From NCBI GenBank assembly GCA_977017645.1, contig OZ360240.1, positions 37,076,001 to 37,140,000 on the forward strand: a stretch of DNA of 64,000 nt. Reading direction: 5' to 3'. Positions 12,700 to 54,240 of this stretch are shown here, piece by piece (the first letter of the stretch is position 1; every line of letters starts with the position of its first letter). The stretch is from Torpedo marmorata. Its lineage: Eukaryota. Under the pieces are notes generated by a model. It saw nothing but the letters and a program-made list of their open reading frames with translations. It was not told the DNA's origin and did not search any database. Made by a program: the position numbers and the translations under genes.

Positions 12700-12800
12700 A
12701 GGAAGGGCTCAGGCTCGAAATGTCAGTAATATATCTTTACCTCCTATGGACATTGTGAGACCAGCTAAGTTCATCATCCAGAATTTCTGTGTTTTGACTA
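12700..12800 (+). mobile_element. Penelope-derived terminal fragment with degenerate hammerhead motif
   Basis: gaagggctcaggctcgaaatgtcagtaatatatc is homologous to the 3' end of the Penelope at 14132-14220. Confidence 0.7.
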
Positions 12801-13517
12801 CCGACGGCTCCATACAAGCTTTAAACGGCCTGTTGAAAGAGCTGACGACGGTTTATTTTAAAATCCTGCGATCACAGGGTCTGGGCTCAAGATGGGGTTG
12901 CAGACTCCGGGGAAGCAGAGGACTGGTGCAAGGCACCAGAAAACAGGGAGACCACCCCCCATTTAAGAAGGAGAAGCAGAGGGGACGACCCTATGGGACA
13001 GTGACCACAATGGTGGACCAGCGAGGGGCTCTGCGGCTGAAGAACACACAGTCGATGGGCTGTTGGTGACTCGAGGCGAGGAAACCATGCAGGCAGCAGG
13101 CTGCTGGTGACTGTGGTCAAGGGACTCACACCAGGCTGCAGACTGCTGGAGACTGGCTGGAGACTGGCTGAAGGGGTACCAGGTATCGAAACCGAGATGC
13201 GAGAGGGAGCTGAAGGCGCTGAGGGCTTCCTGATTGTGTCAGAGTTTTGGATCTGGAGCTCGGGTTGCCGATGGTTTGGACTGAAGACTGTGTGGCTGCG
13301 GAGACTGTGGGAGCGCTGGAGGCGAATCTACAGTATGGGCACTCAGTGACACGGCGGAGCTCTCTTTTGCTTCTCTTTCTTGACTGTAAGGGGTGCCAGG
13401 CAATTTCTGCTGATGGCGAATCTTTGTCTGCCTTATGTTATGCCAAAGGAAATTTTGTGTAATATTACATTTTCTGTTTTATTACACATGGCAATAAAAG
13501 AATCTTGAATCTTGAAT
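12801..13517 (+). mobile_element. GC-rich non-coding retroposon with (ATCTTGA)n tail (copy 1)
   Basis: Homologous to 27527-28299 (-) and 47521-47877 (+). Ends GGCAATAAAAG(AATCTTG)2. No conserved ORF. Confidence 0.75.
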
Positions 13518-13519
13518 AT

Positions 13520-13765
13520 GATTGTGCTGATCTTCAATGGCCTCAACTCCTCTTCTGTACTAGTTCTGCATCATCGGGACCTTTCAAACTTTTATCTATC
13601 ACCATTTTAAATATATCTAATGATCTGGCTCAGGGGCAGTGAATTATAAAGTTCACTTCCCTCTGAGAGAAGAAATTTCCATGTACCTCAGCTTTAAATA
13701 AATGGACCCTTATTTATCAGCAATGTCCCCTTGTTAGTGATTCTCCCACCAGGAAAAATGGTTAC
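13520..13765 (-). mobile_element. Old CR1 3' remnant
   Basis: Similar to the CR1 at 5638-6210 (ccctctgagagaagaaatttcc...). Confidence 0.55.
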
Positions 13766-14131
13766 AGTATTTAGACGCTGAGCATCTAATCAACTGTGAC
13801 AGCCATGATGTTGATTTTCTGTATGTTTCAAGAAAATTACTTCTATCTAGTTTTATGGGCCAAAACTGCCAAATTACTAGAATAAAGTTAGCAAAGAGAG
13901 TAAATGTCTTCATGAACTTCACTTTTCTGTTGAAGCCAATTTGCTGCCTGATATTTTCAGAGGTTTTGGAATATCAGAACATAAGATGTGGTGAAAGTTG
14001 ATGTAACAATTCTGTTAATATTTTGACCAATATGCAGAATGTTTAAGCACAATTCAACATTTATTGTAAAAACTTTTGCCAGCAGCTCACAGGCAAAATA
14101 AAATTCAGCTCCCAGCTTTATCTGTCAGATA

Positions 14132-15290
14132 GTAAAAACACCGAAATGCTGGTCATTTCAGTATCTATAGGAGACAAAGATATATTGCTGACGTTTCGGG
14201 CCTGAGCCCTTCTTCAAGGAAAAATCAGGAAAGGCAGAAGCAGGATATATCAGAAAATCTCAGAATTCAAACAATGGGGGAGGAATCCGGACCAACAAAA
14301 GGTGTTAATTGGATGTGATAAGGGATTAGGTATAATTTATCATGTCTGTGCGAAGGGAGACAGGGAATGGAGAGACGACGGGAGAAGCAGGGGGTGGGGG
14401 AGGGTTTAACGAAAGCCAAAGAAGTTGATATTAATGCCATCCGGTTGGAGGGTGCCCAGTCGGAAGATGAGGTGTTGTTCCTCCAAGTTACGGGTGCTCT
14501 CAGTCTGGCAGTACATAAGACCATGGACAGATATGTCAGCAAGTGAATGGATGGAGAATTGAAATGGGTGGCCACTGGGAGATCCACGTTATTGTGGCGG
14601 ACAGAGCAGAGGTGCTCAACAAAGCGATCTCCCAGTCTGCGTCTAGTCTCTCCGATGTAGAGGAGACCACAGCGGGAGCACCAGATGCAGTAGACGGCCC
14701 CTGAAGATTCACAAGTGAAATGTTGCTTCACCTGGAAGGACTGTTTGGGGCCCCGAAAGGTGCTGAGGGAGGAGGTGTTGGCGCAAGTGGAGCATCTCCT
14801 GCAGTCACAAGGGTAGGTCCCAAGGGGAGATTGGTGGGGAGGGAGGAGTGGACAAGGGAGTCACGGAGGAAGCGGTCCCTGCGGAAGGCGGAGAGGGGAG
14901 GAGAGGGGAATATGTGTCTAGTGGTGGGATCACGTAGTAGGTGGCGGAAATGGCGGAGGAGGATGTGTTGGATGCGGAGGCTGGTGGGTTGGTAGGTGAG
15001 GATAAGAGGTATCCTGTCCTTGCTGCGCGTGGGGGCGGAGGGAGCCATGGCAGATGTGCGGGTAATAGAGGATATGCGGGTGAGTGCCGAGTTGATGGTG
15101 GTAAAGGGAAGGCATGTTGTTTGAAGAAGGAGGACATCTCTGATGATCTGGCATGGAACTCCTCATCCTGAGTGCAGATGCGACGGAGATGGAGAAATTG
15201 AGAGAATGGAATGGAATCCTTACAGGGGCAAGGTGGGAAAAGGTGTAGTCGAGGTAGCTGTGGGAGTTGGTGGGTTTATAGAAGATGTCT
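14132..15290 (-). mobile_element. Penelope-like element, 5'-truncated: RT thumb, GIY-YIG endonuclease and hammerhead-bearing 3' terminus
   Basis: Frameshifted pieces TDIFYKPTNSHSYLDY, DRIPLILTYQPTSLRIQHILLRHF...PLSAFRRDRFLRDSLVHS, and FTCESSGAVYCIWCSRCGLLYIGETRRRLGDRFVEHL (GIY-YIG). Flanking direct repeat TCTGTCAGATA at 14121-14131 and 15288-15298. Confidence 0.92.
14186..14220 (-). ncRNA. Minimal type I hammerhead ribozyme-like motif at the Penelope 3' end
   Basis: Minus strand reads cc-UUGAAGA-a-GGGCucagGCCC-GAAA-cg-UC. Core boxes and stem II are visible; stem I is weak. Confidence 0.55.
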
Positions 15291-15659
15291 GTCAGATAAA
15301 CAAGCAGACAATGAAAATGAATAGCCATTTCCCCTTTGATAGCTGCATTATCACCCGGTTAGATCCTGTGTAAACCAATGTACAGCCTACTCTGTATATT
15401 CTGTCCTCGGTCCATGAATTACACTGTACCTTTATGTTAATCTTGTGGCAGGGCTTACTTAGAATAGGATTGGCCTTGCTGAAAGTCTGAATGGGCCATG
15501 AATGGTGACCTTGCCTTCAGCAGTGAAACTGTTACTGGTGCTTAGGGCAGTGAAACCCAAGTCCTTAGTACCAATGACAGTTCATAGCTATCAAAAAGAA
15601 TTGTCACTTTATTTATATCCTGTATATATTATAGACATTTAGAAATTTTAAATGAAAAT

Positions 15660-15848
15660 AAATAGTTATTTTTATTTAAATTAATTTAAAGATATTTAAT
15701 TTAATTTTGATATACAGCACGGTAACAGGTCTTTTCGGCCCAGAACCTGTGCCGCCGAATTACACCCAATTGACCTACAACCCCGGTACGTCTTTTGAAG
15801 AGTCGGAGGAAACCGGAGCACCCGGAGGAAACCCACGCAGATATGGGA
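15660..15848 (-). mobile_element. V-SINE 3' part
   Basis: Matches 60327-60584. Confidence 0.8.
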
Positions 15849-17049
15849 AGAAATCTCCCAATGATTCGTTTTTGGATAACGATTTATGAATATTTTAAAT
15901 TCATTCTTTAAACACTCCTTGTAGCTACACTGATTCTGGGTTAATGCTTTAAAGCATATCTCCAACACGTTAATGATCCAGGGTAAATTAACAGTTTCAC
16001 CAAAATAGTGCAACCGGAAACCCAGTACCTTATTTCTTGTTGCAAGTCTTCCATTATACAGTAGGTACTGGAAGGAAGAAAATTGGGCTAGTATTTTTGT
16101 GAGCACCTATGTATAGAGGTTTTTAAATTTGTTGACCATGCAACTCATCTTATTTTGAATGTATTTTATTTCTTTGTATAGAATTTCACCGCTTTCTCAC
16201 TTAAAACATGACCATCCTCAATCACCAATACTTCTGTCACTCGGTGATTGCTACAGAAGACATTGCATGAAGTAGGGATATCACTCAAAGGCCCTTTTCT
16301 TTGCCCTGTTATAAATGAGATGTCGCTTTTGACACACTCCCCTCACAAACTGGTCCCAGCGCCTTCCTTTATTAAAGCATTTAACGAGTTACTTGTACTG
16401 CTTTCTGGAACAAACATTAATTTTAATGTGATTTACATAATGGTTGAGGTTTTCTTCCAAAAGTGGAATTGCAATTTTAATATAGTTCACTGAGCATGGA
16501 GGCATTGTTTAATTATTTCCTCATTCCTTTGAAATACATAATATTTAGAAGATATCACTGATCATTGTTAATACTCCCTGCCTGATGGATTAACCTCTGA
16601 GCATACTTCATTTAATAAATGTAATTTTCTGAGATCTTCTATGAGATTATTAATAAATGTCTTGGAAATGAATTCCTTGTTATAATGAAGCACTATATTT
16701 TAAAGCAGTATTTCTAAATAACTAAGTACATTTTCAGGCTTTGCTGAGGATATGTGTGCATTAGTATTCAAAAACTGTGTCTAGTCAAATTGCAGGGGAG
16801 TCTGTAGAACAATAACTAAACTCACATAAGCCTGAATGTCACAGCACCAAAACTTCAGAAATGTTAGATGCATATAATGAGAGCTTTGATAAAGTACAGC
16901 TGGTCTCGCAATGGCATGGATGAGAATTTTGACATGCTTGCAAGACAGACATGTGGAATGGGTTATTCTCATAACTTACACTGCAGTAAATTTAAGATTG
17001 CATAAACTTTCTGTCTAAATCACCAAGAAGATAAAATTCCCCCGAGGGA

Positions 17050-17540
17050 AAAAAGGAAATTTGGAGGAAGGTACACTGCATACACATTTCCCAGTTTGAG
17101 AAGCAATTAACAAGGCCAATCAAATGCTGACACTGTAAAAAACAAGTCAGAGGAAGTTGTGCTCAAAGAACAGGGTGGTCTGGTCACATCTTGAGTACTA
17201 ATGCCTCCAGTTCTGACCATAAAGAAGACATTCAAGACCTGGAGATTATTCAGGAGAGGATTGATTCTTCAGGTGACTGTGGTATGTGCAGCAATGCAAT
17301 TGAGTTGACAAGTGGATAACATCGAAGTATATATGGCATACAACGTAAAAATGTAGATTCAAGTAATGGCTTTAGACTCTATTGTGAGAATAGAACAAGT
17401 GAAAAAATATTCACCTTCACAAATTAGAATTTATGTTATGATTTTCTGCTCCATGCAGAGAGATCAAGTAGTGGCAAAAATCATCAAATAGTTAAAGGGT
17501 TAGATTGCATGATGGGTTTAATAGGACCTTTTAGAAGGAG
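17050..17540 (+). mobile_element. Highly degraded CR1 fragment
   Basis: ctggtcacatcttgagtac...cagttctg...aagaagacattcaagacctggag resembles the CR1 RPHLEY..QFW..KDI..LE region. Confidence 0.5.
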
Positions 17541-20321
17541 AAGTTAAGTTTAACAGCTTACTCGTGTATTTGCCTAGTAAGATGGAAATGTATCCTGGTA
17601 CTTCTGAAAAATGTTTTATAAATGCAAACTATTCTTTCCTGCTTTGCCGCATCTTCAAAGAGGAGAATGAAAAGTAATCACAGAGCTGGATTAAAGTATT
17701 TTTGAAGAAAGCCTTAACAACCTTCTTTAGCTTTGAAATTATGTTGTGCAAATATTGATACGAGAAAATTAACACATTGATTTGAAATTCATGTGTCCGC
17801 TAATTTATTTTAAATCAGTTAACATCTTAATTAAAGTGGTAGATAAAAAAGTTGTAAGAACATAAGAAGTGTTTATATATTGTTATTCACTCAATGTCAT
17901 TACAAAGACACTGACTGAATATTGTATTGCCTCTTATTACTCTTGTTGAATTTATTTGAGTTTCCTTAACTGAGAAGATGACATGTCTGCAACACAATCA
18001 TCAGGAATCTGGATTAGGAATCTCGTTTGCTTTTGCCACATTGGCTAATTTATTTACTGTCAGCACGAACAAGGAAGTTGCTAGCCATTAAATTTGTCAG
18101 ATTTATATGTTTGCTAAATGACAGAATTCCATTTTGTAAATATAAGATTGAGATTAAAATTCACAGAGTTTGTGTTCTCATGTCTTCTTCTGATGTGGAA
18201 ATAAATATTTGATCTCCACCTAAGTAGTTGTTTTACATATTAAATGGGCTTTCTTATTGAAATCATGCTACATGCATCTAAAGGAGAGTAAATGTCTGAT
18301 GCCTTCTTCATTCTATTTCTTTATGCAATAATTATTTTCCCCCTTCCATGCAATACAACTCCGATATGTGCTGCAACATCACTGTTAAAAATTAATGCCT
18401 AAAAGTTTTTACCATTAAAGCCGGAAGCTCTTCTTGTTAGACATCATGCACGATGAGTGCTCCCTCGTGAAATGCAAAGTAAAATCAATGTCAGGTTGGA
18501 CTAACTACTGTAATGCAGGTAATATTTCTTCAGACATCTCCGATTGGTGAATATGTTTGATTACAAGATCATGGCATACACAAAACAATCATGTAATTCC
18601 AATGTGCCAAACAACATTCCATTAACTCCTCTTGTTAGACTTCCTGATCCAGTAATATTTTTTCCGTTATCCAGGCTTTTTTGTAAAATGCATTTTGCCA
18701 GTCTGACGTGACAAACATTTTATTTATTGTATTATTTTAATCAATCTCCACTACACGATGAGCCATGTTAATTAATTAAATAATATATCAATTTGATTAT
18801 TGTAAATATTATTTGCAAAACAATATTCTAGGTCTCTTTGTATGTAAATCCCTTTAATAATGCACTTCACTCATGAATTCAGCATTCATGAGGTTTGCCG
18901 ACCTAAACTAATAGTTTAAATTGTGCATCAAAACAAGTTGATGGAGGTTGTTTCCACCAGGGAATCTTAATTCCTCTGTTTAATATCTGGTTATGGCCTG
19001 CATTAGCATCAATAGTGTACAATAGTACATATGTGTAATGACATACTTCAAATGTTCTATTTTTATTGTTCACTGAAGCATTTTTACTTCTAGTGTATCC
19101 ACATTGTGCAGTGAATGTCTTAGGTTTTTCCCTGTTTCAAGGTTACATTGTCTTACTATGGCAAAAGGATGAAGATCAGAAGGAAGGTAAAGGACTGAAG
19201 ATCAATGATAAGTTTAGAAAACTTATACAATAATGGTATAAGTATTGAAATAAAAGTACTAGTTCAGGAAAAAACAAATAATCACCAGGAATTAATTTGA
19301 AGTTGACTCAAGGTTTTGTTAATATCCATTCTTTGGACAGCAAAGATATTTTTTTGTTTATACATCTTGCCATATTTAATAGGCTTTGCTGATATTTATC
19401 CTTAAGATGTATATCTTTGAAGCTTGGTGATATATTAAGTTTGTGGATGTCCTTATTCCTGTTGATATTTAATATTCTATCTGCATATTCACTTGTCCAT
19501 CTATCTTGATAATTCCATTTTAAAATTTGAAGCACTTGTACAGATCTCTGATAACATCAGTGGAATTGTGTGCCTTTGCAATAATAATTTTACTTAACCA
19601 TGGTGCTTGTGCATCTTCCATAGGGAAATATAGTTGACCCCAGATAAACATATTTGAGAAACAAAGTAACTTTGCAAAGATCTAGGTTGGCTCCACAAAA
19701 CCATACAAGGCTAAAATTGTATCGTAGCTGTGAATCTGCACCAGCAATCCAACGATCAGGAGTTCAAATCACATGATGAGTTGTCATTTGCTTTGAATAA
19801 ATTAATTATTAAAAATGGTAAATCTGTTGTATAATTGAAATGTCCTTCTACTTGACCTAAATGTGTTGAAATACAAATTATTTTTCCTAATATGAAATCG
19901 TCACTAAATGTCATTTTTAATACTGTATTGGGAACATTTTATCAGTTGAAAATTATTTAGTGCAACAGTACATAGATATTCATGGAGAATATTGCTTATT
20001 TTCAATGAATATTGAGCTCGGCTAATCTATCCAAACTGTGATGATGCCATTTTCATCAAAGATAAAAACATTCCATGATAAAACATCACGAAATCATGGT
20101 AACTCATTAACCCCAAACCAGCTCTGCTGTTCATGTTATATGAAGAAGCCATGCTACAATATGAACTCTCAGGTAACAGCTATGGAAATGGAATTCTCAG
20201 TGCCCCCAAACAGCAGGATGAACCTATGTCTTTGTTACTTGCTAGTTCAGTCATGATCAAACATATATCAACAATTAATATGAACACACTAAAATCAGTG
20301 TATATTTTGGTCAATCATGTG

Positions 20322-20582
20322 GGGCGGCACGGTTGGCTTAGCGGTTAGCGCAATGCCTTTATAGCGCCAGCGATCGAGACCAGGGTTCAAATCCCGCGCT
20401 GTCTGTAAGGAGTTTGTACGTTCTCCCCGTGTCTGCGTGGGTTTTCCCCGGGGGCTCTGGTTTCCTCCTACTGTTCGAAATGTACTGGGGGTGTAAGTTA
20501 ATTGGGTGTAAATTTGGCGGCACAGGCTCGTGGGCCAAAATGGCCTGTTACTGTGCTGTATGTCTAAATTTAAAATTTTTAA
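20322..20582 (+). mobile_element. Full-length tRNA-derived V-SINE (HE1-like)
   Basis: Pol III A box TGGCTTAGCGG and B box GGTTCAAATCC. V-domain gtttgtacgttctccccgtgtctgcgtgggtttt. AT-rich tail. Confidence 0.88.
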
Positions 20583-20759
20583 AAATCGTTCATAGAGAAT
20601 GGAAAATAATTGGGACTATCATGATTTTGACTGAAATCATTGGCTAAGGTTTCATTTCCATCAATAAATTATTCCATGGAAAATCTTAGGTTAGATTGGG
20701 ATACTTCAATAACTTACACTGCACAGAAGAGAGTCAAAAGTGTCAAAAAATATCTAAAA

Positions 20760-21258
20760 CGGTGTTTCCCAACCAGTGGGCCACTGCAGTGTTCCATGTG
20801 GGCCACGGAGATTCCCCAACCCACTGAGGTCAGAGTGGGTCTGAGGTCATGTCCTGGTCCTCCCGGGTGACCTTGGGTGGGGTGACGAGCAATCGGCCAC
20901 TGAGGTCAGTGAGGTCAACTGGCCGTCTCTCAATATAAGCGGCTTGGCGCTCAGCACTCAGTCGCAGTTCCTATCAGACCAAGGATGTGGAAACTGGTGA
21001 AGAAACTTCAGGAACAGGGGTCTCATTAAAGTGGCTTGAGCTTTGATTTTGATTGGGAGTTTTTATGTTCAGTGTATGCTTGCAGTGTTTTTATTCTTTA
21101 AAAATGTTAAATAAAATACTTTGAATTTGATAATGATGTGTTTCTTACAGAGCTGCCTTTGACTTGAAAATATTGCTCAGTCATTGCCACGAGTGGGCCA
21201 TGGCATGTAAGGCCAGAAGCCAGGTGGGCCTTAGACTGAAAAAGGTTGAGAACCACCG
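20760..21258. mobile_element. Non-autonomous hAT (Charlie-like) element
   Basis: TIRs CGGTGTTTCCCAACC / GGTTGAGAACCACCG. 8-bp TSD ATCTAAAA (20752-20759) / ATCTAAAT (21259-21266). Confidence 0.85.
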
Positions 21259-23074: not shown

Positions 23075-23372
23075 AAAGTAAAAACACAATGCTTGAGAAC
23101 AGTGTACTTTATATAGCAAAGATAAAAACACATAACCAACGTTTCGGGCTTGAGCCCTTCATCAGGTATGAGCAAAATGTAGGCAGTCGCTCAAACAAAA
23201 TGGTGGGGGGAGGGTCAGGGAAGGAGCACAGTCCCACAGGCAGGAGGTAATAGGTGGATAAGGGAGGGAGGGCACACCAGCAAACAAGGGGAGAGGGAAA
23301 GGCTCTGTGAATGGAGAGGGAAGGGGGTGGAGAGCTGGAGGAAAGTCGACAGAGGGATGGGTAAGGGAAAAT
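23075..23372 (-). mobile_element. Penelope-derived 3' terminal fragment
   Basis: Purine-rich tract plus the same terminal module as 45895-46057 and 53628-53802. Confidence 0.8.
23131..23170 (-). ncRNA. Minimal type I hammerhead ribozyme motif (canonical core)
   Basis: Minus strand reads CAUAC-CUGAUGA-A-GGGC(UCAA)GCCC-GAAA-CG-UU-GGUUAUG. Both conserved boxes, a 4-bp stem II, a palindromic AACGUU in place of stem III and partly complementary stem I arms. Confidence 0.7.
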
Positions 23373-24945: not shown

Positions 24946-25962
24946 CCGTCATATAAGACCCCCCCTTTTTCCCCCAAAAAATTGCCTCAAAAACCACCCC
25001 GGGTCTTATACGCGAAGGTGACATTTTGGTACCGCTATTTTGGGCACTGAGTGGAGTCCAGGAAGCGGGTCCGCAGCTTCGCAGACCACTTTTCCTTGGG
25101 TGGCCCGTACTTTCCAGAGTCGCCGCCGCTCACTTCCCCCGGTAAGAAGGCTCGCTCTCTCCCTCCTTCCCGCCCGCCCGCTCTCTCCCTCCCGTTCGCT
25201 CTACCCGCCCACTCTCTCTCCCTTCCGTTTGCTCTCTCTGCCCGCTCGCTCGCTCTCACCCGCTCTCTCCCCGCCCATTCGCTCTCCCCGCTCGTTCGCT
25301 CTCCCCGCCCGCTCGCTCGCTCTCCCCGCCTGCCCGCTCGCTCGCCCACTCTCTCCCTGCCCGTTCGCTCTCCCCGCCCGCTCGCTCGCTCTAGTCCGCC
25401 CTCTCCCCGCCCGTTCGCTCTCACCAACAGTGCTTTGAGGGGAGTGCTGGGCCTCGATGATCAGCCTTTGTTTGACGAGCACGGACCCTCGAGCAAATTG
25501 AATGAGGCGCGGGGGCGGGTGGCAGTGAGCGAGCGGCCTGTCAAGCTCAGCTCAACAGGTCGCCCGCTCGCTCACTGCCACCCGCGCCTCATTCAATCTG
25601 TTCGGGGGGCCGTGCGTGTCAAACAAAGGCTCAGCATGGAGCCTGATCACCGAGGCCCAGCGCTCCCCTCAAAGCAAGCGATCGATTGTCTGCTCCCCGC
25701 GACGGTGGGCCTGGGCCCTGCCCGTTGTCCTGGCTTCTCTCCCTCCCACCCTCGCGCGCCCGCAGGTCCCCGCACACCTGTCAATCAATTAGCGTTTGGA
25801 CGTTGGTGGGGAAGCAGCCTGAGCCTCGGCGTGCGGCGGGCAGGAGAACGTGTTGCTGCTGTGAAGGTAAATACACTAAAACAATTTTTTCCTGAAATCT
25901 CATGCTAAAAATGGGGGGGGGGGTCCTATATGCCAGTGGGTCCTATATGCCATCAAATACAG
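24946..25962. mobile_element. Non-autonomous Tc1/mariner-superfamily (Tc2/pogo-like) element with GC-rich palindromic interior
   Basis: TA|CCGT-CATATAAGACCCCC at left and GGGTCCTATATGCC...AAATACAG|TA at right (repeated subterminal motif, TA TSD). Interior has a (CTCG/CCCG) low-complexity tract at 25150-25425 and a fold-back at about 25430-25678. Confidence 0.75.
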
Positions 25963-26171: not shown

Positions 26172-26335
26172 GTGCAGCTGCTGGAAATCTGAAATAAAAA
26201 CAGAAAATGCAGCAGGTTAGGCAGGATCTGTGGAAAGAGAAATATAGTTATTGTTTCAAGTTGAAGGCCCTTCATTAGAACTTTAAAACATTAGATTTTG
26301 CCTGACCTTCTGACTGCTTCCAGCATTTTCTGTTT
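26172..26335 (-). mobile_element. Older Penelope-derived fold-back fragment with degenerate hammerhead
   Basis: aaaacagaaaatgc ... gcattttctgtttt inverted ends. Minus strand reads CUAAUGA-agggccuucaacuu-GAAA. Related to 54063-54240. Confidence 0.6.
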
Positions 26336-27013
26336 TGTTGCAGAGAGGCCTAAGGTATCAATTGTGGAGGAACACGTAACCTCTCTGTCTGGAACATTGT
26401 GGATTGCAGAGAGTCACGTGTCCTCCCTGTCTGAAATTTATTCGGAAGTCGCATCACCTGCCAATCAAGGTTGGACTCCGGCACACCTTGCTGTTGGCTC
26501 ATTTAAATTATTTAGGGTCATCATTGGCTTATCGCCCAGCTCAGAACTGTATAAAACATCGATGCATAGCACATTTCTCTCTCTCTGCCTCGTGGTCCAA
26601 GCCCCAAACATCGCTCTACGCTAGGTCGCTACTGTGGACATCGCTGGAGGAGTCACGGGTAAGGTGTGCACTACACCTAAGCTGAGCCGTAGTACTGCGA
26701 TAGATCAGTGCTTGCAGACAGCCGCATCCCTATTGGTACAGGGAACCGGGAGTGTGTTTGAAAATCCCTGTCTGTAGAGTGTGTACACGTGCATGAGCGT
26801 GTAGAAGACAAGCGGCCATTGGTATCAGAGTCAAACCTGGGTCCAATGTGAATGTCTATATAGTTGTTTAGTAGTAGAGTAATTAAGTATCATTTGACGT
26901 TCTCCCCTGTTTGTCTCCTGTGTGTTCAATAAAGTTACTTGTAATTGTAACACTTGTGTCCAGACTCGTCTCTCTGTGAACCCACCGAATCTGATACTCT
27001 TCCAAACACAACA
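26336..27013 (+). mobile_element. Solo LTR-like element
   Basis: TGTTG...CAACA termini. CCAAT (26461), TATAAAA (about 26550) and AATAAA (about 26928) in U3-R-U5 order. No clear TSD. Confidence 0.65.
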
Positions 27014-27039
27014 AAGGTACTTAAACATATGATTTTGGT

Positions 27040-32440: not shown

Positions 32441-33558
32441 ACAGGAGAAAGTTCCTTTATGTATTTGTGCAGAAATCATGAAATGTGTGCCCTTGCAACA
32501 CGTAGGACCAACATTTTCTCTAGTAATTGTTGGTAGGCTTCCACTCTAGTTTCAGAAAGATTCCATTGCAATAAAATCCCAGTGCAGCGAAATGCTCTTT
32601 ATAAGGAGTGGTTTTAAAAAAAAAATTCACCTCTGAACATTCGGCCCTTCTTCCAAATCTCAACTGCATTATGAATATAAACCCATAAACAGTAGCGGAC
32701 AAACCTTCGAGACGGGTGTGTTGACACAAGCATTGATTCCAAACACCGTGCGCAATTATTTTCTGTATGAATGCTAAGAACGTCTGGTTATTTTTGCTCC
32801 CCGGCTTTGAAATACCAACTGCAGATAAAGACATAGTCCTTCTGTAAATCATATTGACAGTACAATGAACCTGATCAATTCCCAATTCTCTTACTTTGCA
32901 AAATAATGCCAATCTGCTGTTTTCTGTGCTGGTTGTCAATATTAGCGTCTCTGCGCGTAAAAGATCATGATCGACATCTTGCCTGTCTCATTTGAAATCA
33001 ATACCATTGAACCAGCAACTTATTAATGTGTACGATATAGGATTCCCGGCGAGTTTTTTTTTAACCTGTTGATAAGAACAGTAATCGGTGACCACCACTT
33101 AGAATGATCAGTGCGCAGAAAGCAGTTAAGATCGGATACCCCTTTGGTACGCAAATCATTTCGCGCCTATAATAATGCCAATGAATATAGAACTGGGAGG
33201 ATCAAATTATCGCGTTAGTTATCCTTTAAGTAGATGATTAACAGTGTATGTTTATTGCTGCAATGTGGACGGCGGATCTGGGACAACCGATCTATGCCGT
33301 GCAAGCTCATAAAGATTTGCCCCGTTAGCCGTCGGGGGGTGGGGGCGGGATGGTGGGATTGAATGTCCTTCTTCGCTGTAAAGTGAAAGGACCGATACTG
33401 CTCGGAGATGTAAAGGGGTTATTATTGCTTTTGCTTTTCCTGATTTAGCTGGAGCTTTGGATTTGAATGCTTTCTCTCGCTGAAACGCTCACAGGATTTT
33501 CGGGTCAGGGCTGCGTGCAATGACCTGTCTTTAAAAAAAGATGGAAGTTTGCTCTTAC

Positions 33559-34576
33559 CTACGCACTCGTTGGACTCTCTGGCCGTGGCTCTCTGCCAGG
33601 GTCGATCGTAGTGGAAAGGTTTGCATCGGTCACATTCCGGGCCCGCGGTGTTGTGCTTACAGTCACAAACCAGGTTGCCGTCTCGATCCTTGATGCACCT
33701 GGACGCGTGGCCATTGCACTTACACCGGCCACCGACCTGTAGATCAGAGACTGCGTAATAGTAGGACTCCCTGGCTAGTTCCGAGTCGTCTTCATTCTCG
33801 TCCCCGAAGGTATGGAGACGGCTGAATGCCACCTTGATGTCTGTAGCAGTGACCCAGTCTTGAAGGACAGGGCTGTTGTCAAAATCGTGCGCCGAGGGGC
33901 GACCGTCCAAGGTGCTGAAAGCGATCAAGCCCCCCGTGAAAGGATGCATGTCGGTGTGGGAGTCGGTGCAAATGGCCTCTTGCTCATTCTGCTTCGTGAT
34001 CACAGCCTTGTTGGGTTTGTTGTACATTTTTCTGCATTGGGTGGAGTAGAACTGAAAGGGTACCCAGGATTTACCGTAGTCCATCGATTTATAGATGGCC
34101 ATCGAGTCTGGCCGCGGGGAGCAGAATTGAAGACTGACGTACGTGACTTCGAATTTCTTGCCGAGGGAGAGAGTGAGGGTCACATTTTGAGGGTACTGGA
34201 TGTAATTCTCTGACTGCCAGCAGGTTAGGTTGTGAGGGTTGTTGAGATCGGTCAGGTAGGCTGGCGGGCGAGCCTTTTTAGGGTCCGTGGCATCGCAGAT
34301 GTGACAATTCCTGAACCGATCGTCTGCCTTTTCCGTCACCACACAGTACCTGGACGCGGGTTTGCCGCAAGTGCTGGACACTTTCACTTCCTTGCCGAAA
34401 GCGGAGTTGACGAAGTCGGGGATACAACGCCGGGGGTTGTTGTTCTCGTCGTAGCAGGGGTCTGGGGGAGTTTGTTGTGCTGCAAACATGCTCATGCCAT
34501 AGCCCCCGCGGACGCCTTCCACCAGGCAGTTCAGACCCAGGAAAGCGCAGACAAACTCCCAAAAAGTCAACAGCAT
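33559..34576 (-). CDS. ntn1: Netrin-1, first coding exon (signal peptide, laminin N-terminal domain VI, EGF V-1); partial CDS
   Basis: 339 codons + 1 nt. Sequence PDPCYDE...[24 protein letters not shown]...[15 protein letters not shown]...[15 protein letters not shown]...[11 protein letters not shown]...[20 protein letters not shown] closely matches vertebrate netrin-1. Ends at donor G|GTAAGA (intron starts 33558, phase 1). ATG has A at -3. Confidence 0.96.
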
Positions 34577-34623
34577 TTTGTTCTCCCTTCACAGTGTAGC
34601 CTCGAGACATACGACGAAGGATC
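34577..34623 (-). other. ntn1: 5'UTR part of the ntn1 coding exon, preceded by a splice acceptor
   Basis: Minus strand ttgcgtttctgtatttttcccccAG|GATCC: polypyrimidine tract with AG at 34625-34624. Confidence 0.75.
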
Positions 34624-36983: not shown

Positions 36984-37123
36984 CATACCTTGGTGAAGGG
37001 CTCAAGACCGAAACGTTGGTTATGTATCTTTACTACATAAAGTGCACTGTTTGACCTGCTGAGTTTCTCCAGCATTGTGTTTTTACTTCAACCACGGTGT
37101 CTGCAGACTTTCGTGTTTTACTT
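36984..37123 (+). mobile_element. Short Penelope-derived insert beginning with a hammerhead motif
   Basis: CATACC-TTGGTGA-A-GGGCTCAAGACC-GAAA-CG-TT-GGTTATG followed by the shared module tttgacctgctgagtttctccagc...gtctgcagactttcgtgttttact. Confidence 0.8.
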
Positions 37124-43128: not shown

Positions 43129-43320
43129 AAGTAAAACACGAAAATCTGTAGACACCGTGGTTGAAGTAAAAAACACAAATGCTGGAGAAACTCAGCAGGT
43201 CAAACAGTGTCTTTTATGTAGCAAAGGGCTCAAGCCCGAAACGTCGGTTATGTATTTCTACCTTTGCTACATAAAAGACACTGTTTGACCTGCTGAGTTT
43301 CTCCAGCATTTGTGTTTTTT
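43129..43320. mobile_element. Penelope-derived fold-back mini-element with 14-bp TSD
   Basis: TSD ACCACACCGACGTG (43115-43128, 43321-43334). Perfect 61-bp inverted repeat (43167-43227 / 43261-43321) around a loop containing GCTCAAGCCCGAAACGTCGGTTATG. Confidence 0.88.
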
Positions 43321-45831: not shown

Positions 45832-45894
45832 TGCTTTTGTTCGTTTCGTTTCCATATTCAAGCATCTTCTCCAGATGATTCAATCATCTTCAAA

Positions 45895-46057
45895 AACGAG
45901 TCTGCAGACACGGTGGTTGAAATAAAACACAATGCTGGAGAAACTCAGCAGGTCAAACAGTGTACTTTAAATGGTAAAAATAAAGATACAAAACCAACGT
46001 TTCGGGCTTGAGCCCTTTATCAAGGTATGAGCAAAATGTAGGCAGGCGCCGAACAAA
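45895..46057 (-). mobile_element. Short Penelope-derived insert with hammerhead motif (45991-46029)
   Basis: Minus strand CAUACC-UUGAUAA-A-GGGCUCAAGCCC-GAAA-CG-UU-GGUUU plus the shared terminal module. Confidence 0.82.
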
Positions 46058-47285
46058 ACGATACATCACCTGCGTTTCACAGAAATTTGGTATTACAGTA
46101 TTTGAAAGATGGTACATTTTCTGTAAGGCGTTTTATTGGCTAATTTGACTCGTACTCAAAACATAAAGTACCTCACAAAAAATATTGCATTTAAATTGAG
46201 AAGTTGGGTTAGTGTTTATACGATAAAATAACCTTTTTGTTTCAAGCACTCCAGCTATGAAGAAATACTTTGGGGAAATTTAATTTTCCTTTGCAGATTG
46301 AGATCTTTTATGGGATGGCAGGATTTAGGCACAACACATTCACAATGCAAATGAGAAAGTAGATTTTAGAATATAATAAAAATGTAAGTTTTAAAATGGT
46401 GACTGGAAGGGAAAGGGGGGGGGGCTGCATTTTGTGGCTGCATTCCTTACTTGTTATCAGCTTGGGAGCTGATAAGAAGCTCCGTATTTGGTAGGGTGGT
46501 GTGAGACTAACCAACAAATCGCAAGAAAATTTTAAGGAACATGTACTTATTTGGAGCAGTCAGTTCGAATGTTCCACAAAAACTAAAGGTTAAAAACTAA
46601 AACTGAGGTGATATTGTAAGCGACGAGTCAGTCTCCTTTCTTGTAAGCTAGCTGCTGGTGGTAGTGCTTCTCGCTGTAACTGAGTGCTCATGCTTTGCAA
46701 AGTGATTAAAGGTTTGTTTGCCAGCTGTATTCTTGCTTGCTTTGGAGCAACCTCGGGTCCACTTTAACACAAATGATAATGGAATTAATTTGAAAATAGT
46801 TGAATAAACACCGTTGAAAGTCCGGACTTGGTGGAGGGATTTTAGGAACCAGAAGCAATGGTTTGACTGAAGATCCAAAGCATTCCCAATTGGACAGAGG
46901 AGGAAACAATTGGCACGCTTTGGTCACTTTCCCTTCTTCCTGAGCAAACCTCTGTAGTTCTTCATGATCTGGATTAATTTTCAGTTAATGTTTGAGAAAA
47001 TGCTTGCAGTATGCACACCAGTTATCCATGGCAGGCACAAGATCGTAAATTAACCAAGCAGGCAACTTTTGAGAAACGCACAGACCTGCTGATCCACAAA
47101 ATCCTGTGGCAGTTGCTTAAGAGTTGAGGAAATGTCGGTGAGCACATTTGTGACCACCTCGAACCTTATTTATAGACAAATGTCATGGAAGTTGATACAA
47201 CTTCATATGCATTTTTCCATGTTGCCCCCATTTTAAACAGACACACCCATTGGAAACTGGGATGCGAAGGAGCCCGTGGAAATCC

Positions 47286-47407
47286 AGAAGAAGGGCTCAG
47301 GCTCGAAACATCGACTGTCTTTTACTTCCTATTGGTGTTCCATGACCTGCTGAGTTTCTCCAGCACTTTTATGTGCTACACTAGACCACAGCATCTGCAG
47401 ATTTCTT
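47286..47407 (+). mobile_element. Short Penelope-derived insert, degenerate hammerhead
   Basis: agaagaagggctcaggctcgaaacatc...gacctgctgagtttctccagcac...catctgcaga. Possible 7-bp TSD GAAATCC. Confidence 0.7.
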
Positions 47408-47494
47408 GAAATCCCCCAATCCCCTCACCCTCCAGTGGAAGAGAAATTTGTTCAACTACAATAAGTTCACATAACATAAAATTCAACATCCCAT

Positions 47495-48045
47495 ATTTCA
47501 GATTTATTGCCACATACATCTTGGAGGTTGGCTCGAACTGGCTGGAGGAGTACCAGGTATCGGAACCGGATGTGAGGGGGTGCCCAGGGCGACCTGACCG
47601 TGTTGGAGGCTCGGATCTGGAGCTCGGGATGCCAATCGTTTGGACTGGACTCTGTGTGGCTGCGGAAGCGCTGGAGGCGAATCTATGGACACTCGGTGAC
47701 TCTGGGGGGACTCTCTTTTGCTTCTCTTTCTCTGACTGTAAGGAATGTTGGAGGCACTTAGGCGGTTTCTGCCGATGGCGAATCTGTCTGCCTTGCAGCA
47801 GGCAAAAATAAATTTTGTGGTATATGACACTGTCTTATTGCTGTGACAATAAAGTGAATCTTGAATCTTGAATCTTGACATCACATACAACCCTGAGATT
47901 CTTTTTCCTGCGGGCGAGGCAGAATTACCATTTATTGGCAGTGCAAAAAAAAACGGACTCAACTTACACATGTAAACAAATAAAGAAATGTAAACAAGCT
48001 GACTGCAAAACAGAGATAGAAAAAAATCAATAAAGTGCAAAAGTA
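47495..48045 (-). mobile_element. Rex1-clade 3'UTR fragment interrupted by an insertion
   Basis: 47497-47520 and 47878-48045 align with the uninterrupted copy at 50984-51190. Confidence 0.78.
47521..47877 (+). mobile_element. GC-rich non-coding retroposon with (ATCTTGA)n tail (copy 3, 5'-truncated)
   Basis: Closely matches the reverse complement of 27527-27885. Ends GACAATAAAGTG(AATCTTG)3. Confidence 0.8.
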
Positions 48046-48659
48046 AAAATTTGGACCTACAATTAAGATTTCCCTATATGAAAGACAACTGTATTCTATA
48101 TTAATAATGTGTGACAGTTTAACATCGAGGATGAGGTATGACTTAGCATTAAACACGGAGAAAAATGAAGTGAAATTAATGGTCCCGGACTGCAATGATT
48201 TGTGTCGCGTTAATACTGGATTATGAGAAGCGTTTTAAATCCTAGAAAATTAAATATTGAAATAAATAGTAAATATTAAAAAAAAATCAGGAAGCCTGTT
48301 TCTGTGACGGTTTGGCATGTTGTACCGCAGCTAGAGCGGGTTTGAACAGCGTGCATAATAATGGATTAGTTAAAATACATGCAAAGGTTGATCATATAAC
48401 GCTTGCTCAGGTATATTGTGATATCCAAATCCGAGTTTTGAGGCTATAAATTTCCAGGGATTCCGTTTATTTTTGCGGCGAGTTTTTAAGCAAATACTAA
48501 CCAAAATCTTAAACCCTTCATTAGGATGATTCGTGTAATTTTATTAGTTGACTGGCTCGCGAGGGAGAGAGTAGGTGACACGAGGGAATGGAAATGAAGG
48601 GGCTGTTCTGAGAACCGGTAGATTAGAAAGGCTATCTATTGGGAATATTGGAATTTCCG

Positions 48660-48702
48660 AAACACCGAATTTCATGACTTGTTCATGACAATAAATTCTG
48701 AA
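48660..48702 (+). mobile_element. 43-bp Rex1 3' terminus
   Basis: aacaccgaatttcatgacttgttcatgacaataaattctga matches 9925-9966 and 62494-62530. Confidence 0.75.
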
Positions 48703-49169
48703 ATATTATTACAGCTCAAGTGTGATTATACATTATTTCTAGATAACATCGTAAACCAAACACTGAAGTTTACCGTTTACACTTGTCCCACACTAACATG
48801 TAGAATTTCTCACATTGTTGGATGATAATTGCCACGTCTCCCATTTCCCTAAGGTATTGCAATATAATTTGGAAAACATTGTGTTTTAGATGTTGACATC
48901 CACTTTAAACAACCATTAGTGATTGGACGGTGAAGATCAAACGTTCATACATTGATTCTTTCGGCCTTCGTTTTAAACATGGTGCACTCAGGAGAACGTT
49001 GACTAAATGCTTTTGACAAGCCCTTTATTTTACCAGGCTTTGGTGATTAAACTGTCCCTGGAACAGGCAGAGACATCGCTTGGTGTTAATTAGTGAGAGT
49101 AAGAAACTGTTCAACCCATCGGGCAGTTCCCACCCAGAGCTGGTTTTAAGTTAGTGCCAGGTCATGGCC

Positions 49170-49550
49170 GGGAATTGGATGGGTGTCAGTTGTTCGACTG
49201 AAAGCTGCCTTTCTCTATAAAGATTCTCATTAGGCTGTGGTACGGAGGGGTGAGGATTGCAAATCCATTCAATCTGCGGTTTGGCATTGACACAAAGGCA
49301 GGGCGGGAGCGTTTCCCCTTTTTTGTTTCCTCTTTTGACTTTGACACTTATTATGAAAGGAGCTGTGTCTCTAATCTGGGATCAAATCTTAAATTTTATA
49401 TTATCGTGTAAATGGCATATCAATAAACCCTACCCTTGCCATTATAATGCCCTGCTTAGATATCTCACACATCCGCTGCACACAAAATGCTTTGCAGTTT
49501 CCTTCTTAACTGGAAAGCAAAATAAAATGAGTGCTTATATCAATCATTTC
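49170..49550. promoter_or_regulatory. Candidate conserved non-coding element
   Basis: Unique sequence with ACAAAG (Sox-like), TAATCT, ATCAAA, TTGACA x2 and CAATAAA motifs. Not tested for conservation. Confidence 0.35.
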
Positions 49551-49564
49551 TAGTATCTGTGAGT

Positions 49565-49815
49565 ATCTTCAAGTAAGAGATACAGGAATATAAAAACCAG
49601 GACTGCCAGGCTGGGAAACAGCTTCTTCCCTCAGGCGGTGAGACTGCTGAACAATCCTAGAAACCCGTAAATTATTTTTACATATATTTATTTTGGATCG
49701 CTACATATCTATGTCGTTTGTGTGTGTGTGTGCACTATGGTCCGGAGATGCGTTGTTTCGTCGGGTTGTATATATATATATATGTACAATCAGCTGACAA
49801 TAAACTTGAACTTGA
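49565..49815 (+). mobile_element. Rex1-clade 3' fragment
   Basis: Encodes KRYRNIKTRTARLGNSFFPQAVRLLN. Tail AATAA(ACTTGA)2. Confidence 0.82.
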
Positions 49816-50719
49816 TTTGTATTTGTGGTGTTTGGCGTTGAGTGCCGTCCTACTGTTTGGATTATGTCTCATTGCCCCGTTGCAGAGAGGTGCAGGTATG
49901 CATTTAAAGAAAAACCCAGGTTCTAGTGTCAACCATCTCTCCCTAATCTTTGAATGCAAAATTTGAAAATGATGATTTAATTAAGAGGTTTACATCATTG
50001 CTAATTGTGCAATCTCGGGTTAATCGGAGCCTTCAGAAACACTGTGCAGATTGAATAACTTTCGATCGGGCGGAGATCAGAAGGAAATGTCTTCCCGGAG
50101 TAAAATTTGCTTAAACATTTAATTCCGCTGCAATACATCCTCCACAAAATTAATTTTACTGTTACTTTCGCAAATCTTAGTAAAAACAAGATCATCTGAA
50201 AACAAGCAGCAAGAGCCTGTGCATCAGCTTTGCACTGTACAACAACACATCCTGATGTTGCAGGCACCAGGGAAGATGAACTAATTGCATGGCAGAATGA
50301 AGGAATTTTAATGTTGTCTCGTGATTCACAATGGGTGGAATACATTGGACGTGCAATGATATCCGAGGGCAATAACTCGTAAGAAACTTTTGCGTTAGCA
50401 TATCCTGTCAGGTTTATTACGAATGTTGTTGCGGGATTTTGAGACTTACATGCCATGAGCTGTAGTTCGGTCACCCTGTGTGTTGGAGTTCAATCGTAAA
50501 CGTAAACCGACTGATCGGTTCCACACCAGGCTTCGCTGCTTGATTATTCAAAATAAATAACATTGCACTCTTTTCTCGTTCCAAAGGGCTCCGTTTCCAA
50601 CCAAAGAATTTAAAAAATGGAACCACACTCGGAATACGAAAAAAAAAAAAATCATCCAGGCATTTGGATATTCCGAGAAACACCTGTGGTGAAGTTTATA
50701 TATTTTTGTAGGGACTTAC

Positions 50720-50900
50720 CCGTTTTGCTCTGTGCAAGTCCAGAGTCAAGTGTTGGCTTGGATTTAAGATAACGGCGGCATCTTTTGCTCTGCTACCCCG
50801 ACTGCTGGCTGCCGCTTGCGGTGGTCCGGAGAAGTCCAATACATGCAGTGTGAACCTTCCGTAGACTTCCGAGCTCTTGGGCTAAGAAAACTGCCTGAGC
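50720..50900 (-). other. Candidate distal non-coding first exon
   Basis: Strong donor CGG|GTAAGT (GT at 50719-50718) after a CpG-rich stretch. Same strand as ntn1. The 5' limit is a guess. Confidence 0.35.
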
Positions 50901-50983
50901 AGCACCAATGAAATAAAGATCTTGAAATGGCTGTTGGTTGAACATTCTGTTTGTTTGACTTAAATCAGGGTTTAATTGTTTGA

Positions 50984-51390
50984 AGTTCAAAGTTCAGATT
51001 TATTGTCAGAATACATACATGACATCACATACAACCCTGAGGTTCTTTATCCTGCCGGCTAGACAGAATTACCACTTATTGGTAGTGCAAAAAAAAAACT
51101 ACTCAAGTACACATGTAAACAAATAAAGAAATGTAAACAAACTGACTGTGCAATACAGAGAGAAAAACATCAATAAAGTGCCAAAGTAAGTGTCCTTAAA
51201 TGAGTCCCTGACTGAGTTTGTCCTTGAGGAGTCTGATGGTGGAGGGGTAGCAGCTGTTCCTGAACCTGGTGGTGCAAGTCTTGTGGCACCTCTTTCCTGG
51301 CAGCAGCAAGAACAGAGTGTGTGCTGGGTGATATGGATCCTTGATGATTGCTGCTGCTCTCCAACGGCAGCGTTCCCTGTAGACGTTCTA
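50984..51390 (-). mobile_element. Rex1-clade 3' fragment
   Basis: Minus strand encodes AAAIIKDPYHPAHTLF...TTRFRNSCYPSTIRLL. Tail AATAAATCTGAACTTTGAAC. Confidence 0.85.
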
Positions 51391-52887
51391 GCGATTTAGC
51401 GTCTAGTGTTTTAGCGATTTAATTTTCAACATATATTTTGAAGCATTTAAACTTGTATAATAGCCGGTGGGTGTTTTTGGTATTTGGAACACCATTAACA
51501 TTCACAATCTTCCCATTTTAGTGTCAGTTGTTTTTCACTGGGGATTTGGGGTGGGGGAGCTTTACCCTGTGTCAAAGCCATTCTGAGAGTGGTTGGGCTG
51601 GGGGAAGACCTGGACTACACCAGGATGTCCCAGGCACGCTAATGTTGGCTTCATGGCTACAAGCAAAGCTATGGTGATCTCCAGACAGTGGAATATCTAC
51701 CATACTGGAACAGATAATTGCTTATGTTTTTATCAGTTGGAGAAAAGTTAGCTGGAAAAGGGCCAAGAGTTTTTATTTATGCCTTCTTGAATGGTTAAAT
51801 GGTTTATTGCCATGTATGAAATATAGTAACTGCCAATGCAGCACTCTCTAAGTACAATGATGAAATGTCAGCCCAAGTTAAGTGCATATGTCTTTAAAAT
51901 GAACTTTAGCTTGAATGCACTTTCTTTTTCACTCAGAGTTGTGAATACTTACTCATTACACCTTCTTCTGAATGTCACTTAGAAATGACTGATTAACTCT
52001 CCGATGCATGCATCCAACAATAATTGTTTGTTTACAATATACAGATCTAAATAAGAAATGTTTAATAACTGAGTTTGAAGCCAATAATGAACAGAACTTT
52101 AAGTTTTATATTTGATAAACTCAATACTCTCTTTAATGGAAGCAATTGTAAGAGTAAAATAAATTGATTGTTCTTTTTAAGTCTTTGTGGTGAGAAAATG
52201 AATCTAATTTAGTTACTGTCCTCAATTTTGCTGGTGCATTAACTGACATTTATTTATTGTTACTGCATGCAACAATGAAGAATTCTGTAACTTCTACCAT
52301 TTCACATAGAAAGGTCACCTCCTTTGAGTGAATTCTGTGGGACAGATAATTTTTTATTTAGCATGGCAAAGTATAACTGATTGGCTTTAGGTTCTGCACC
52401 AAAATTGAAAGTTAACTTTGGTTGTATGATTGCAACTCTTTTTTCATAAGACTATGCATTTTGATTGCTGAAATATTTTGAGAGAAATCTCATAACTTAC
52501 ACATATGTTTGTTTAGTTTGTCAAAAGCAGACATCTACTACAAAATTCAGTAATTATATTGGTTAGTAACTCATATACCTTGCCCTGTATGATCATTTAA
52601 AATATATATGTCTGTGAAAGCACAGGGAAATTTTGAGGCATGTTTTGCAAAATAGAATCACACAAGCATATAATCGACAGGTATAAAATCATAACAAAAA
52701 CAGCAGGTTCCAATTATACCACAAACTTTCTACAGAAAGGAATTAAGTGGAAACAAATCTTACAGTAGCTGGAGCCACATCTAAAGATGGTCATGGAAAA
52801 TAGTCACGGTTGTCAGAGCCTAATCATCAAGCCTAGGACATTACTGCAGGTGTGCACAGAGAAGTGTCCTTGGTCTAATCCCTTTAG

Positions 52888-53463
52888 CTGTTTCATTAAA
52901 GGGCCAGATTGTTATGGACCCCACTGTTTCATTAAAGGGCCAGATTGTTATGGACCCCACTGTTTCATTAAAGGACCAGATTGTTGTGGACCCCACTGTT
53001 TCATTAAAGGGCCAGATTGTTGTGGACCCCACTGTTTCATTAAAGGGCCAGATTGTTGTGGACCCCACTGTTTCATTAAAGGGCCAGATTGTTGTGGACC
53101 CCACTGTTTCATTAAAGGGCCAGATTGTTGTGGACCCCACTGTTTCATTAAAGGGCCAGATTGTTGTGGACCCCACTGTTTCATTAAAGGGCCAGATTGT
53201 TGTGGACCCCACAGTTTCATTAAAGGGCCAGATTGTTATGGACCCCACTGTTTCATTAAAGGGCCAGATTGTTATGGACCCCACTGTTTCATTAAAGGGC
53301 CAGATTGTTGTGGACCCCACTGTTTCATTAAAGGGCCAGATTGTTGTGGACCCCACTGTTTCATTAAAGGGCCAGATTGTTGTGGACCCCACTGTTTCAT
53401 TAAAGGGCCAGATTGTTGTGGACCCCACTGTTTCATTAAAGGGCCAGATTGTTGTGGACCCCA
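52888..53463. repeat. Minisatellite, 16 x 36 bp (CTGTTTCATTAAAGGGCCAGATTGTTRTGGACCCCA)
   Basis: Head-to-tail, near-identical units with no spacers. Confidence 0.97.
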
Positions 53464-53627
53464 CTGCTTGGACTTGTTGCCCAGCCTCATTTAATTTTGA
53501 AGATCTGGAGGACTCAATGAGCTGACAATTGCATTATCATGCTATGTTAGTCCATTTAAAAATATAGTGTGACCTTGCCCATTATCTTGGGTGTGTTAAT
53601 AAAGAAACTGGTCATTTATTCTTCATT

Positions 53628-53952
53628 GGAGTAGTAAAATATGAAAGTCTGCAGACACCGTGATTGAAGTGAAAACACAATGCTGGAGAAACTCAGCAGG
53701 TCAAACAGTGTACTTAATATAGCAAAGATAAAGATACATAACCAACGTTTCAGGCTTGAGCCCTTCATCAAGGTATGAGCAAAATGTAGGCAGGCACCTG
53801 AATAAATTCCTCAAACTGGTTCGGGCGCTTGCCTACATTTTGCTCATACCTTGATGAAGGGCTCAAGCCCAAAAAATTGGTCATGTATCTTTATCTTTGC
53901 TATATAAAGTACAGTGTTTGACCTGCTGAGTTTCTCCAGCATTGTGTTTTTA
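53628..53952. mobile_element. Penelope-derived fold-back element with two oppositely oriented hammerhead motifs and a 15-bp TSD
   Basis: TSD CATTTATTCTTCATT (53613-53627, 53953-53967). Inverted arms of about 130 bp (about 53672-53802 / 53820-53950). Motif intact at 53737-53777 (-); GAAACG changed to AAAAAA at 53845-53885 (+). Confidence 0.9.
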
Positions 53953-54062
53953 CATTTATTCTTCATTATGCAGCGATGAATTTATCTTATCAATAATACA
54001 TATCAAGTGGATGGCAGGGATGGAACCTATTCATTGTACCAGTAGCACCCAGAATCTATTTT

Positions 54063-54240
54063 TAATAATAAAAATAGAAATGCTGGAAACACCCAGCAGG
54101 TCAACACAGCATCTGTGGGAAGAGAAACAGAGTTAACATTTCCAGTTGAAGACCTTTCGTCAGAAGTGATGAAGGGTCTCAGACTTGAATGTTTTCAACA
54201 TTTTCTGTTTTTATTCCAGATTTACAGTATCAACAGTTTT
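54063..54240. mobile_element. Older Penelope-derived fold-back element with back-to-back hammerhead-like cores
   Basis: Minus strand 54132-54165 reads CUGACGA-aaggucuucaacug-GAAA-ug-UU. Plus strand 54166-54193 reads gUGAUGA-agggucucagacuu-GAA-uguu. Confidence 0.6.

Follow-up and report, generated by a model that had tools for sequence, protein, structure and literature searches.

In a 64,000-nucleotide stretch of the genome of Torpedo marmorata (contig OZ360240.1, positions 37,076,001 to 37,140,000; hereafter the window), we found that a set of short dispersed repeats bearing a hammerhead ribozyme motif and a conserved tail is the debris of a large and abundant Penelope-like element (PLE) family with a known hammerhead type. 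They are very probably 5'-truncated insertions of several subfamilies of a single endonuclease-bearing PLE lineage with a Neptune/Nematis-type linker. A first-pass annotation of the window had offered two readings of these repeats, namely, a non-autonomous, retrozyme-like class mobilized by Penelope or extreme 5' truncations of the element itself. The places that it named all hold a copy of one common 3' module, in 10 insertions comprising 14 arms, and the truncation reading is the right one because short and long copies are colinear without a fixed 5' boundary. The analysis adds a large, uncurated Penelope-like family.

Positions in the element are given relative to the first base of a tail anchor (position 0), so that stem I of the hammerhead starts at -75, core position 3 lies at -69, and the predicted cut falls between -42 and -41. 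Two samples of copies were used: a tail sample, blind to the 5' end, consisting of the first 96 of 13,775 exact genome matches of a tail 34-mer (all on contig C1), and a hammerhead sample of 91 of the 6,695 genome matches of a hammerhead 34-mer; reversed controls of these 34-mers had 0 matches. The suggestion that the family may be very abundant genome-wide is borne out by at least 85,752 copies of one 25-mer, and the endonuclease yielded 292,359 first-look candidates in the 6.2-Gb genome.

Long copies encode a reverse transcriptase (RT), a CX4CxxC linker, and a GIY-YIG endonuclease in one colinear element, and a direct 5' pseudo-long terminal repeat (pseudo-LTR; hammerhead plus tail) runs into the open reading frame (ORF) in 4 of 18 stretches upstream of near-full-length copies (L295, L300, L301, and L303). 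On these grounds the module, judged from its sequence context, represents both the 3' end and the pseudo-LTR of an element of the Neptune/Nematis type roughly 4 kb long. An RVT_1 domain was recovered in a 980-aa frame of locus L278 (E = 2.2e-6, slightly short of the Pfam curated cutoff). The window itself holds a 1.16-kb, 5'-truncated copy (14131-15292, minus strand) comprising the end of the RT, a CX-CxxC linker, a frameshifted GIY-YIG domain, the 3' untranslated region, a hammerhead with a U3 core at about 14223-14183, and a short 3' end (+34); its GIY-YIG frame (PF01541; E = 3.7e-4, again slightly short of the curated cutoff) bears out the earlier assignment of the copy at 14186 to the 3' end of a Penelope element. 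The linker is CX4CxxC in L278 and family A, with a CxCRRCxxC variant in the 1.16-kb copy. According to the available portion of PMC8557442, a CX2-5CxxC linker between RT and endonuclease defines the Neptune/Nematis type, and our provisional assignment is made from this linker. The same portion describes further features of these endonuclease-bearing PLEs that recur here: the order RT then GIY-YIG, two cysteines between GIY and YIG, partial tandems with a direct pseudo-LTR, 5' truncation, an inverted 5' copy, a 35-nt tail on one end, and a very high copy number. The nearest named proteins are uncharacterized proteins of the bamboo shark (65 to 69% identity). Separately, one Penelope endonuclease fragment is present in about 20 copies of equal score on contigs C74 and C48 and several small contigs (L287), which suggests a large tandem or segmental repeat.

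The evidence for truncation comes from where the copies begin. The 5' ends of the 96 tail-picked copies form a continuum from 35 nt to >1.5 kb; 32 of these copies pass the ORF stop (about -293) and enter the GIY-YIG/RT frame, 17 extend at least 690 nt, and 37 of the 91 hammerhead-picked copies extend at least 440 nt. Throughout, the short copies are colinear with the long ones and contain no sequence private to themselves, so that a non-autonomous class would have neither a boundary nor a sequence of its own. The 3' ends are, conversely, sharply placed: in the tail sample, 61 of 96 lie at +64 to +69, 29 at +33 to +38, and 6 elsewhere, and these two sites, 35 nt apart, account for 90/96 ends in the tail sample and 78/91 in the hammerhead sample. 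At locus L295, two CAG acceptor-like sites immediately precede the pair of 3' ends; the possibility that the tail contains an intron was considered and set aside, there being no good donor.

An inverted arm abuts 24 insertions of the tail sample, about a quarter, and in 12 of these 24 (arms listed by hand) the arm ends at -65 to -76; several of the inverted joints pair one strand of stem I with the other (e.g., arms ending at -75/-34 and -70/-34). Truncation, an inverted copy, and a 30- to 40-bp tail are typical of PLEs as described in the accessible parts of PMC8557442 and PMC8969392, and an excerpt of PMC3846280 reads head-to-head joints as self-priming. Likewise, PMC4209133 reports thousands of minimal hammerheads per genome, mostly solo, with some opposite-strand pairs. 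An experimental parallel is Poseidon of Anolis carolinensis (PAc; PMC11167929), in which two internal RT start sites flank the tail and insertion proceeds normally in ribozyme mutants. Like PAc, the present family has two 3' ends, one on each side of the tail, that lie downstream of the cut site by about 75 and 110 nt, and its genomic copies give no indication of ends at that site; unlike PAc, it belongs to a different clade and possesses the linker.

By analogy with PAc, RT would start at two adjacent internal sites on uncleaved RNA, giving rise to the tail, and ribozyme cleavage would be unneeded for insertion (PMC11167929). RT would then usually drop off early, and it would stop, fold back, or jump somewhat more often just past the copied 40-nt hammerhead hairpin, where the finished hairpin in the cDNA may favor release, snap-back, or a template jump. 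On this account, an enrichment of short copies and of inversion joints would be expected where stem I has its 5' edge. Most short copies are dead on arrival, being single, frequently without a core, and decaying.

We then considered whether the 5' ends cluster at the ribozyme, as the first-pass annotation had proposed to check with respect to the cut site. They do not do so there. Only 2 of 96 ends fall in positions -37 to -46, within 5 nt of the cut (0.26% per nt versus 0.46 to 0.63% in the other bins from 0 to -64). Genome-wide, 201 of 122,602 matches of a 22-mer had four nonconsensus bases upstream of -41; after correction for chance in the flanks (0.215) this gives 0.76% of covering copies, falling to about 0.5% on the basis of the 13 of 20 inspected matches that were real, or about 0.7% if tandem arrays are removed from the denominator. 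The other 7 inspected matches were discounted as small indels or tandem duplications. Cleavage-defined 5' ends were rejected on these figures, with some 0.5 to 0.8% of covering copies ending at the cut site. At the scale of the genome, insertion ends bear no trace of ribozyme cleavage, a negative result in agreement with the in vitro finding from the anole.

A modest accumulation of ends is seen where stem I has its 5' edge, some 34 nt upstream of the cut. In the tail sample, 13 of 96 lie at -72 to -78 (3.2% per nt versus 0.2 to 1.3% on either side; scan P of about 0.006 against a constant rate over 0 to -120), and in the hammerhead sample 9 of 91 do so (1.5% per nt versus 0.7 to 0.8% on either side). 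Genome-wide, 191 of 85,752 matches end at -75, which, corrected by 0.149, gives 1.5%, or about 1.4% with 29 of 30 inspected boundaries being real ends or joints; at the control position -68 the figure was about 0.9% (13 of about 7,000, matches as counted). The excess is 2- to 3-fold genome-wide and larger in the tail sample. The earlier expectation that ordinary Penelope debris would show randomly distributed 5' ends therefore holds at the cut site, where there is no clustering, but not at the edge of stem I. A literature search that covered few subscription papers found no report dealing with the ends of PLEs in rays or with 5' ends located at stem I. That stops and inversion joints are in excess at this edge provides a lead on the origin of the unexplained inverted and tandem forms.

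The peak could also have a different source, in that the 5' edge of stem I might be the 5' end of the element RNA. RT would begin at the tail sites of the upstream pseudo-LTR and run off after about 108 or 144 nt, and the resulting strong-stop-like cDNA would integrate by itself, fold back, or jump to another RNA end, adding a defined short class to ordinary truncation. Besides the peak itself, 6 of the 30 inspected -75 boundaries have target duplications of 9 to 15 bp, and several are joined to ORF pieces, as template jumps predict (L242, L249, L267, L269, and L270). The consensus of an initiator is YYANWYY, and TCATACY at -76 to -70 fits it; however, this is a short match within a pyrimidine tract, and some subfamilies do not keep it. 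Penelope has an internal promoter in this repeat, as stated in an excerpt of PMC2377424, but the D. virilis start is not at stem I, being separated by 46 bp from a downstream 75-bp intron whose end is at stem I (PMC2377424 and PMC4209133, in the portions available). Moreover, the rate at -75 stands only modestly above those at -68 and -41, the peak is weaker in the hammerhead-picked sample, and stopping induced by the hairpin predicts an identical peak. We regard an RNA start at this edge as unlikely, although hairpin stopping and an RNA start at -75 are inseparable by sequence alone. Contigs assembled from two runs presumed to be RNA extend over this sequence, but being uninformative on starts, ends, strand, and circles they were left out of account.

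The retrozyme-like alternative holds that transcripts of short hammerhead units cleave themselves as dimers, may circularize, and are put back into the genome by the PLE protein. Animal non-LTR retrozymes (PMC7229834 and bioRxiv 10.64898/2026.07.22.740005, each in the part available) share with the present copies a type I hammerhead, PLE ancestry, short noncoding sequence, and long target duplications; the latter source derives retrozymes from PLE pseudo-LTRs and records them in the one cartilaginous fish sampled. Covariation of the stems between subfamilies (see below) also speaks for this reading. As described in those parts, a retrozyme consists of a fixed unit repeated head to tail, its ribozymes are canonical, and its RNA is of unit length, whereas the copies studied here occur singly or head-to-head, vary freely in length, and are colinear with the coding element. 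The window has no head-to-tail arrays of the hammerhead unit, and no common downstream continuation abuts the 3' end among the 96 tail-picked copies (one pair shares another repeat). Head-to-head arms put the motifs on opposite strands and therefore leave one sense hammerhead per transcript, an intact TGANGA...GAAAC core is absent from 11 of the 14 window arms, and the cut site, as seen above, has no excess of ends. Among about 300 loci, one mini-tandem was observed (L242:1180-1610), in which 321 nt separate two hammerheads and a 14-bp repeat flanks the whole; both of its units begin at about -75, and it looks like a retrozyme seed. A separate non-autonomous family was also rejected on the ground that a shared deleted composite spans the joint at just 2 of 40 scored places. 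A retrozyme-like class is largely refuted for this window, and we consider its operation in the family highly improbable.

Several points nonetheless weigh against plain 5' truncation as the whole account. The two places with the deleted composite, L269 and L270, lie 560 kb apart on contig C11, and in each an inverted arm is combined with 465 nt of sequence from the RT and with the end from -75 to +69; the same joints thus occur at two loci with different flanks, and therefore defective copies can be remobilized. The 5' ends are not smooth, given the concentration at -72 to -78, so that a second source of short copies is possible. The region from -75 to -35 is predicted to fold as one long imperfect hairpin, but its stability is unremarkable (z of -0.6 to -1.9 for four recent copies and +0.8 for an old one). 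No fully intact single element was found, as L278 has a frameshift before the endonuclease and L295 and L300 have stops near the start of the ORF. Finally, both samples come from the first 63 to 90 Mb of one contig, are biased to less diverged copies, and have 5 loci in common. As a separate observation, locus L249 has a 3' joint similar to that of the L269/L270 composite.

With truncation of an endonuclease-bearing PLE remaining our favored reading, we turned to the ribozyme itself. The earlier identification of a minimal type I hammerhead of the PLE kind is upheld, and the stems covary between subfamilies. In 16 copies hand-picked across subfamilies, 75% of cells were paired and 16 cells were changed on both sides, a count reached in 0 of 500 shuffles and exceeding all slid controls; the number of pairs with two-sided change (5) was not above the shuffles (68/500), and relatedness and the hand choice of rows inflate the test. 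The ribozyme is real in structure. As in the minimal type I hammerheads of PLEs described in the available text of PMC4209133, there is an extra base between A9 and G10.1, a G10.1-C11.1 pair, a palindromic ACGU replacing stem III, and a short bulged stem I, and copies are mostly solo with some opposite-strand pairs; stem II is 4 bp here versus 7 to 8 bp in Schistosoma.

Whether the motif still cleaves is a different matter. Of the core C3 U4 G5 A6 N7 G8 A9/G12 A13 A14, with A15-U16 and H17, the family masters have all except C3: U occupies position 3 in 221 of 233 motifs and, when just those not picked by the hammerhead are counted, in 50 of 53, although one subfamily (including the copy at 47286) retains C3 and an unbulged stem I. 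Thus, the dominant subfamilies combine U3 with G8, whereas the text of PMC4209133 reports C3-G8 and U3-A8. U3 would break the C3-G8 pair, and the motif might no longer cleave, being kept instead as a hairpin or a protein-binding signal. In the PAc ribozyme, changes of C3 and G8 abolish cleavage and leave insertion unaffected (PMC11167929), and the predicted fold here pairs the core with the cleavage triplet. On the other side, U3 can form a wobble pair with G8, and an excerpt of PMC7151607 mentions a natural U3 variant as one of the core variants with slower cleavage. The GUC at the cut site is also kept in the youngest long copies, and G5, A6, A9, A13, and A14 show no variation among the 16 aligned copies, though these were picked by a loose core pattern. 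We view loss of cleavage as a tentative proposal, somewhat less probable than its opposite. Lunse et al. 2017 reportedly list about 150,000 variants. U3-G8 cores may already be in print in the supplement of that work or in figures of PMC4209133. A broader combination, in which the stem I edge is an RNA start or programmed stop, the 108- or 144-nt strong-stop cDNA, initiated internally at the tail sites of the upstream repeat, builds the solo, inverted, and partial-tandem PLE forms by integrating by itself, snapping back through stem I, or jumping to the RNA 3' end, and the U3-G8 motif is a structural signal and not a cutter, seems doubtful to us.

At L295:664-720 (family A), core positions A6-U7-G8 spell an AUG, located 25 nt before the cut site, that opens a frame of 15 to 17 codons. 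The corresponding AUG lies 26 nt before the cut site in PAc (PMC11167929); here, it opens only this short frame and is missing from the UGAAGA subfamilies. On contig C1 (G000:C1:705866-723860; L288), a minisatellite of about 18 kb has a 27-nt unit derived from about -46 to -20 of the element, across the cut site, and duplications of 27 to 30 nt like this unit occur elsewhere.

Within the window, a 20-nt tail motif had 8 matches versus 0 in each of 20 shuffles. The hammerhead motif as quoted in the first-pass annotation fared less well, being matched exactly by 0 copies and within one edit by 2, in a fuzzy search that used the 0- and 1-edit rows and skipped some copies at two or more edits. An Rfam scan returned no hammerhead among 9 window matches at E <= 1, all of them microRNA-hairpin and small Cajal body-specific RNA chance hits under their gathering scores. 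The TGANGA...GAAAC core is kept in just 3 of the 14 arms (14216, 23164, and 53770), the copies at 12700, 43225, and 47286 begin inside or past the core, and those at 36984 and 53845 and of the old subfamily have an altered core or stem. Where two subfamilies had been claimed, the window copies fall in at least four.

Besides the 1.16-kb element described above, five insertions are single arms. The copy at 12702-12807 (plus strand; positions -64 to +44) is a short 3' end that begins after the core; upstream of it, at 12686-12697, lies a 12-nt fragment of the stem I region in antisense orientation. That at 23076-23368 (minus; -274 to +35), with its hammerhead at 23170-23131 and a deletion in the tail, is the sole family A copy of the window with C at core position 3 and has one base fewer than its family. 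A 139-nt copy at 36984-37122 (plus; -75 to +69) begins exactly at the stem I 5' edge and has A6G and a stem II mismatch; a 3' end at 45892-46058 (minus; -104 to +65) has G8A in the core. The copy at 47287-47408 (plus; -67 to +62) belongs to another subfamily, with C3 and an unbulged stem I in its relatives at other places, and has the stem I 5' strand and first core bases cut off.

Head-to-head arm pairs make up the remaining 4 of the 10 insertions. That at 43129-43320 has a left arm from -25 to +69 that includes the tail and a right arm from -63 to +31 without tail or core, and it is flanked by a 14-bp target duplication (43115-43128/43321-43334). That at 53633-53953 has a left arm on the minus strand (-103 to +69; hammerhead at 53777-53737, U3 core intact), a right arm on the plus strand (-100 to +33) with G12 and stem III altered, and a 15-bp target duplication (53613-53627/53953-53967). 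The other two are of the old subfamily: 26190-26336, with arms at about 26190-26275 (minus) and 26303-26336 (plus) and a degenerate core, and 54069-54240, with arms at 54069-54165 (minus) and 54167-54240 (plus), a C3 core on the minus arm, and a decayed stem II. The target-site duplications attributed to several copies were thus confirmed in these two insertions, with candidates seen by eye at 14131-15292 (11 bp) and 47287 (7 bp); they do not discriminate between truncation and a non-autonomous class, because both readings predict them. An automatic test found them in 5 of 79 cases versus 1 of 79 in the control, an underestimate in which inverted arms are ignored.

The window also contains features outside this family. 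A netrin-like first coding exon (Laminin_N and EGF domains) lies at 33422-34588 (minus), and a tandem array at 52841-53533 consists of about 17 copies of a 36-nt unit with 98% identity, open in several frames. Two unrelated inverted repeats, at 8021-8145 (47-nt arms) and 25444-25650 (70-nt arms), are possibly small DNA-transposon derivatives.

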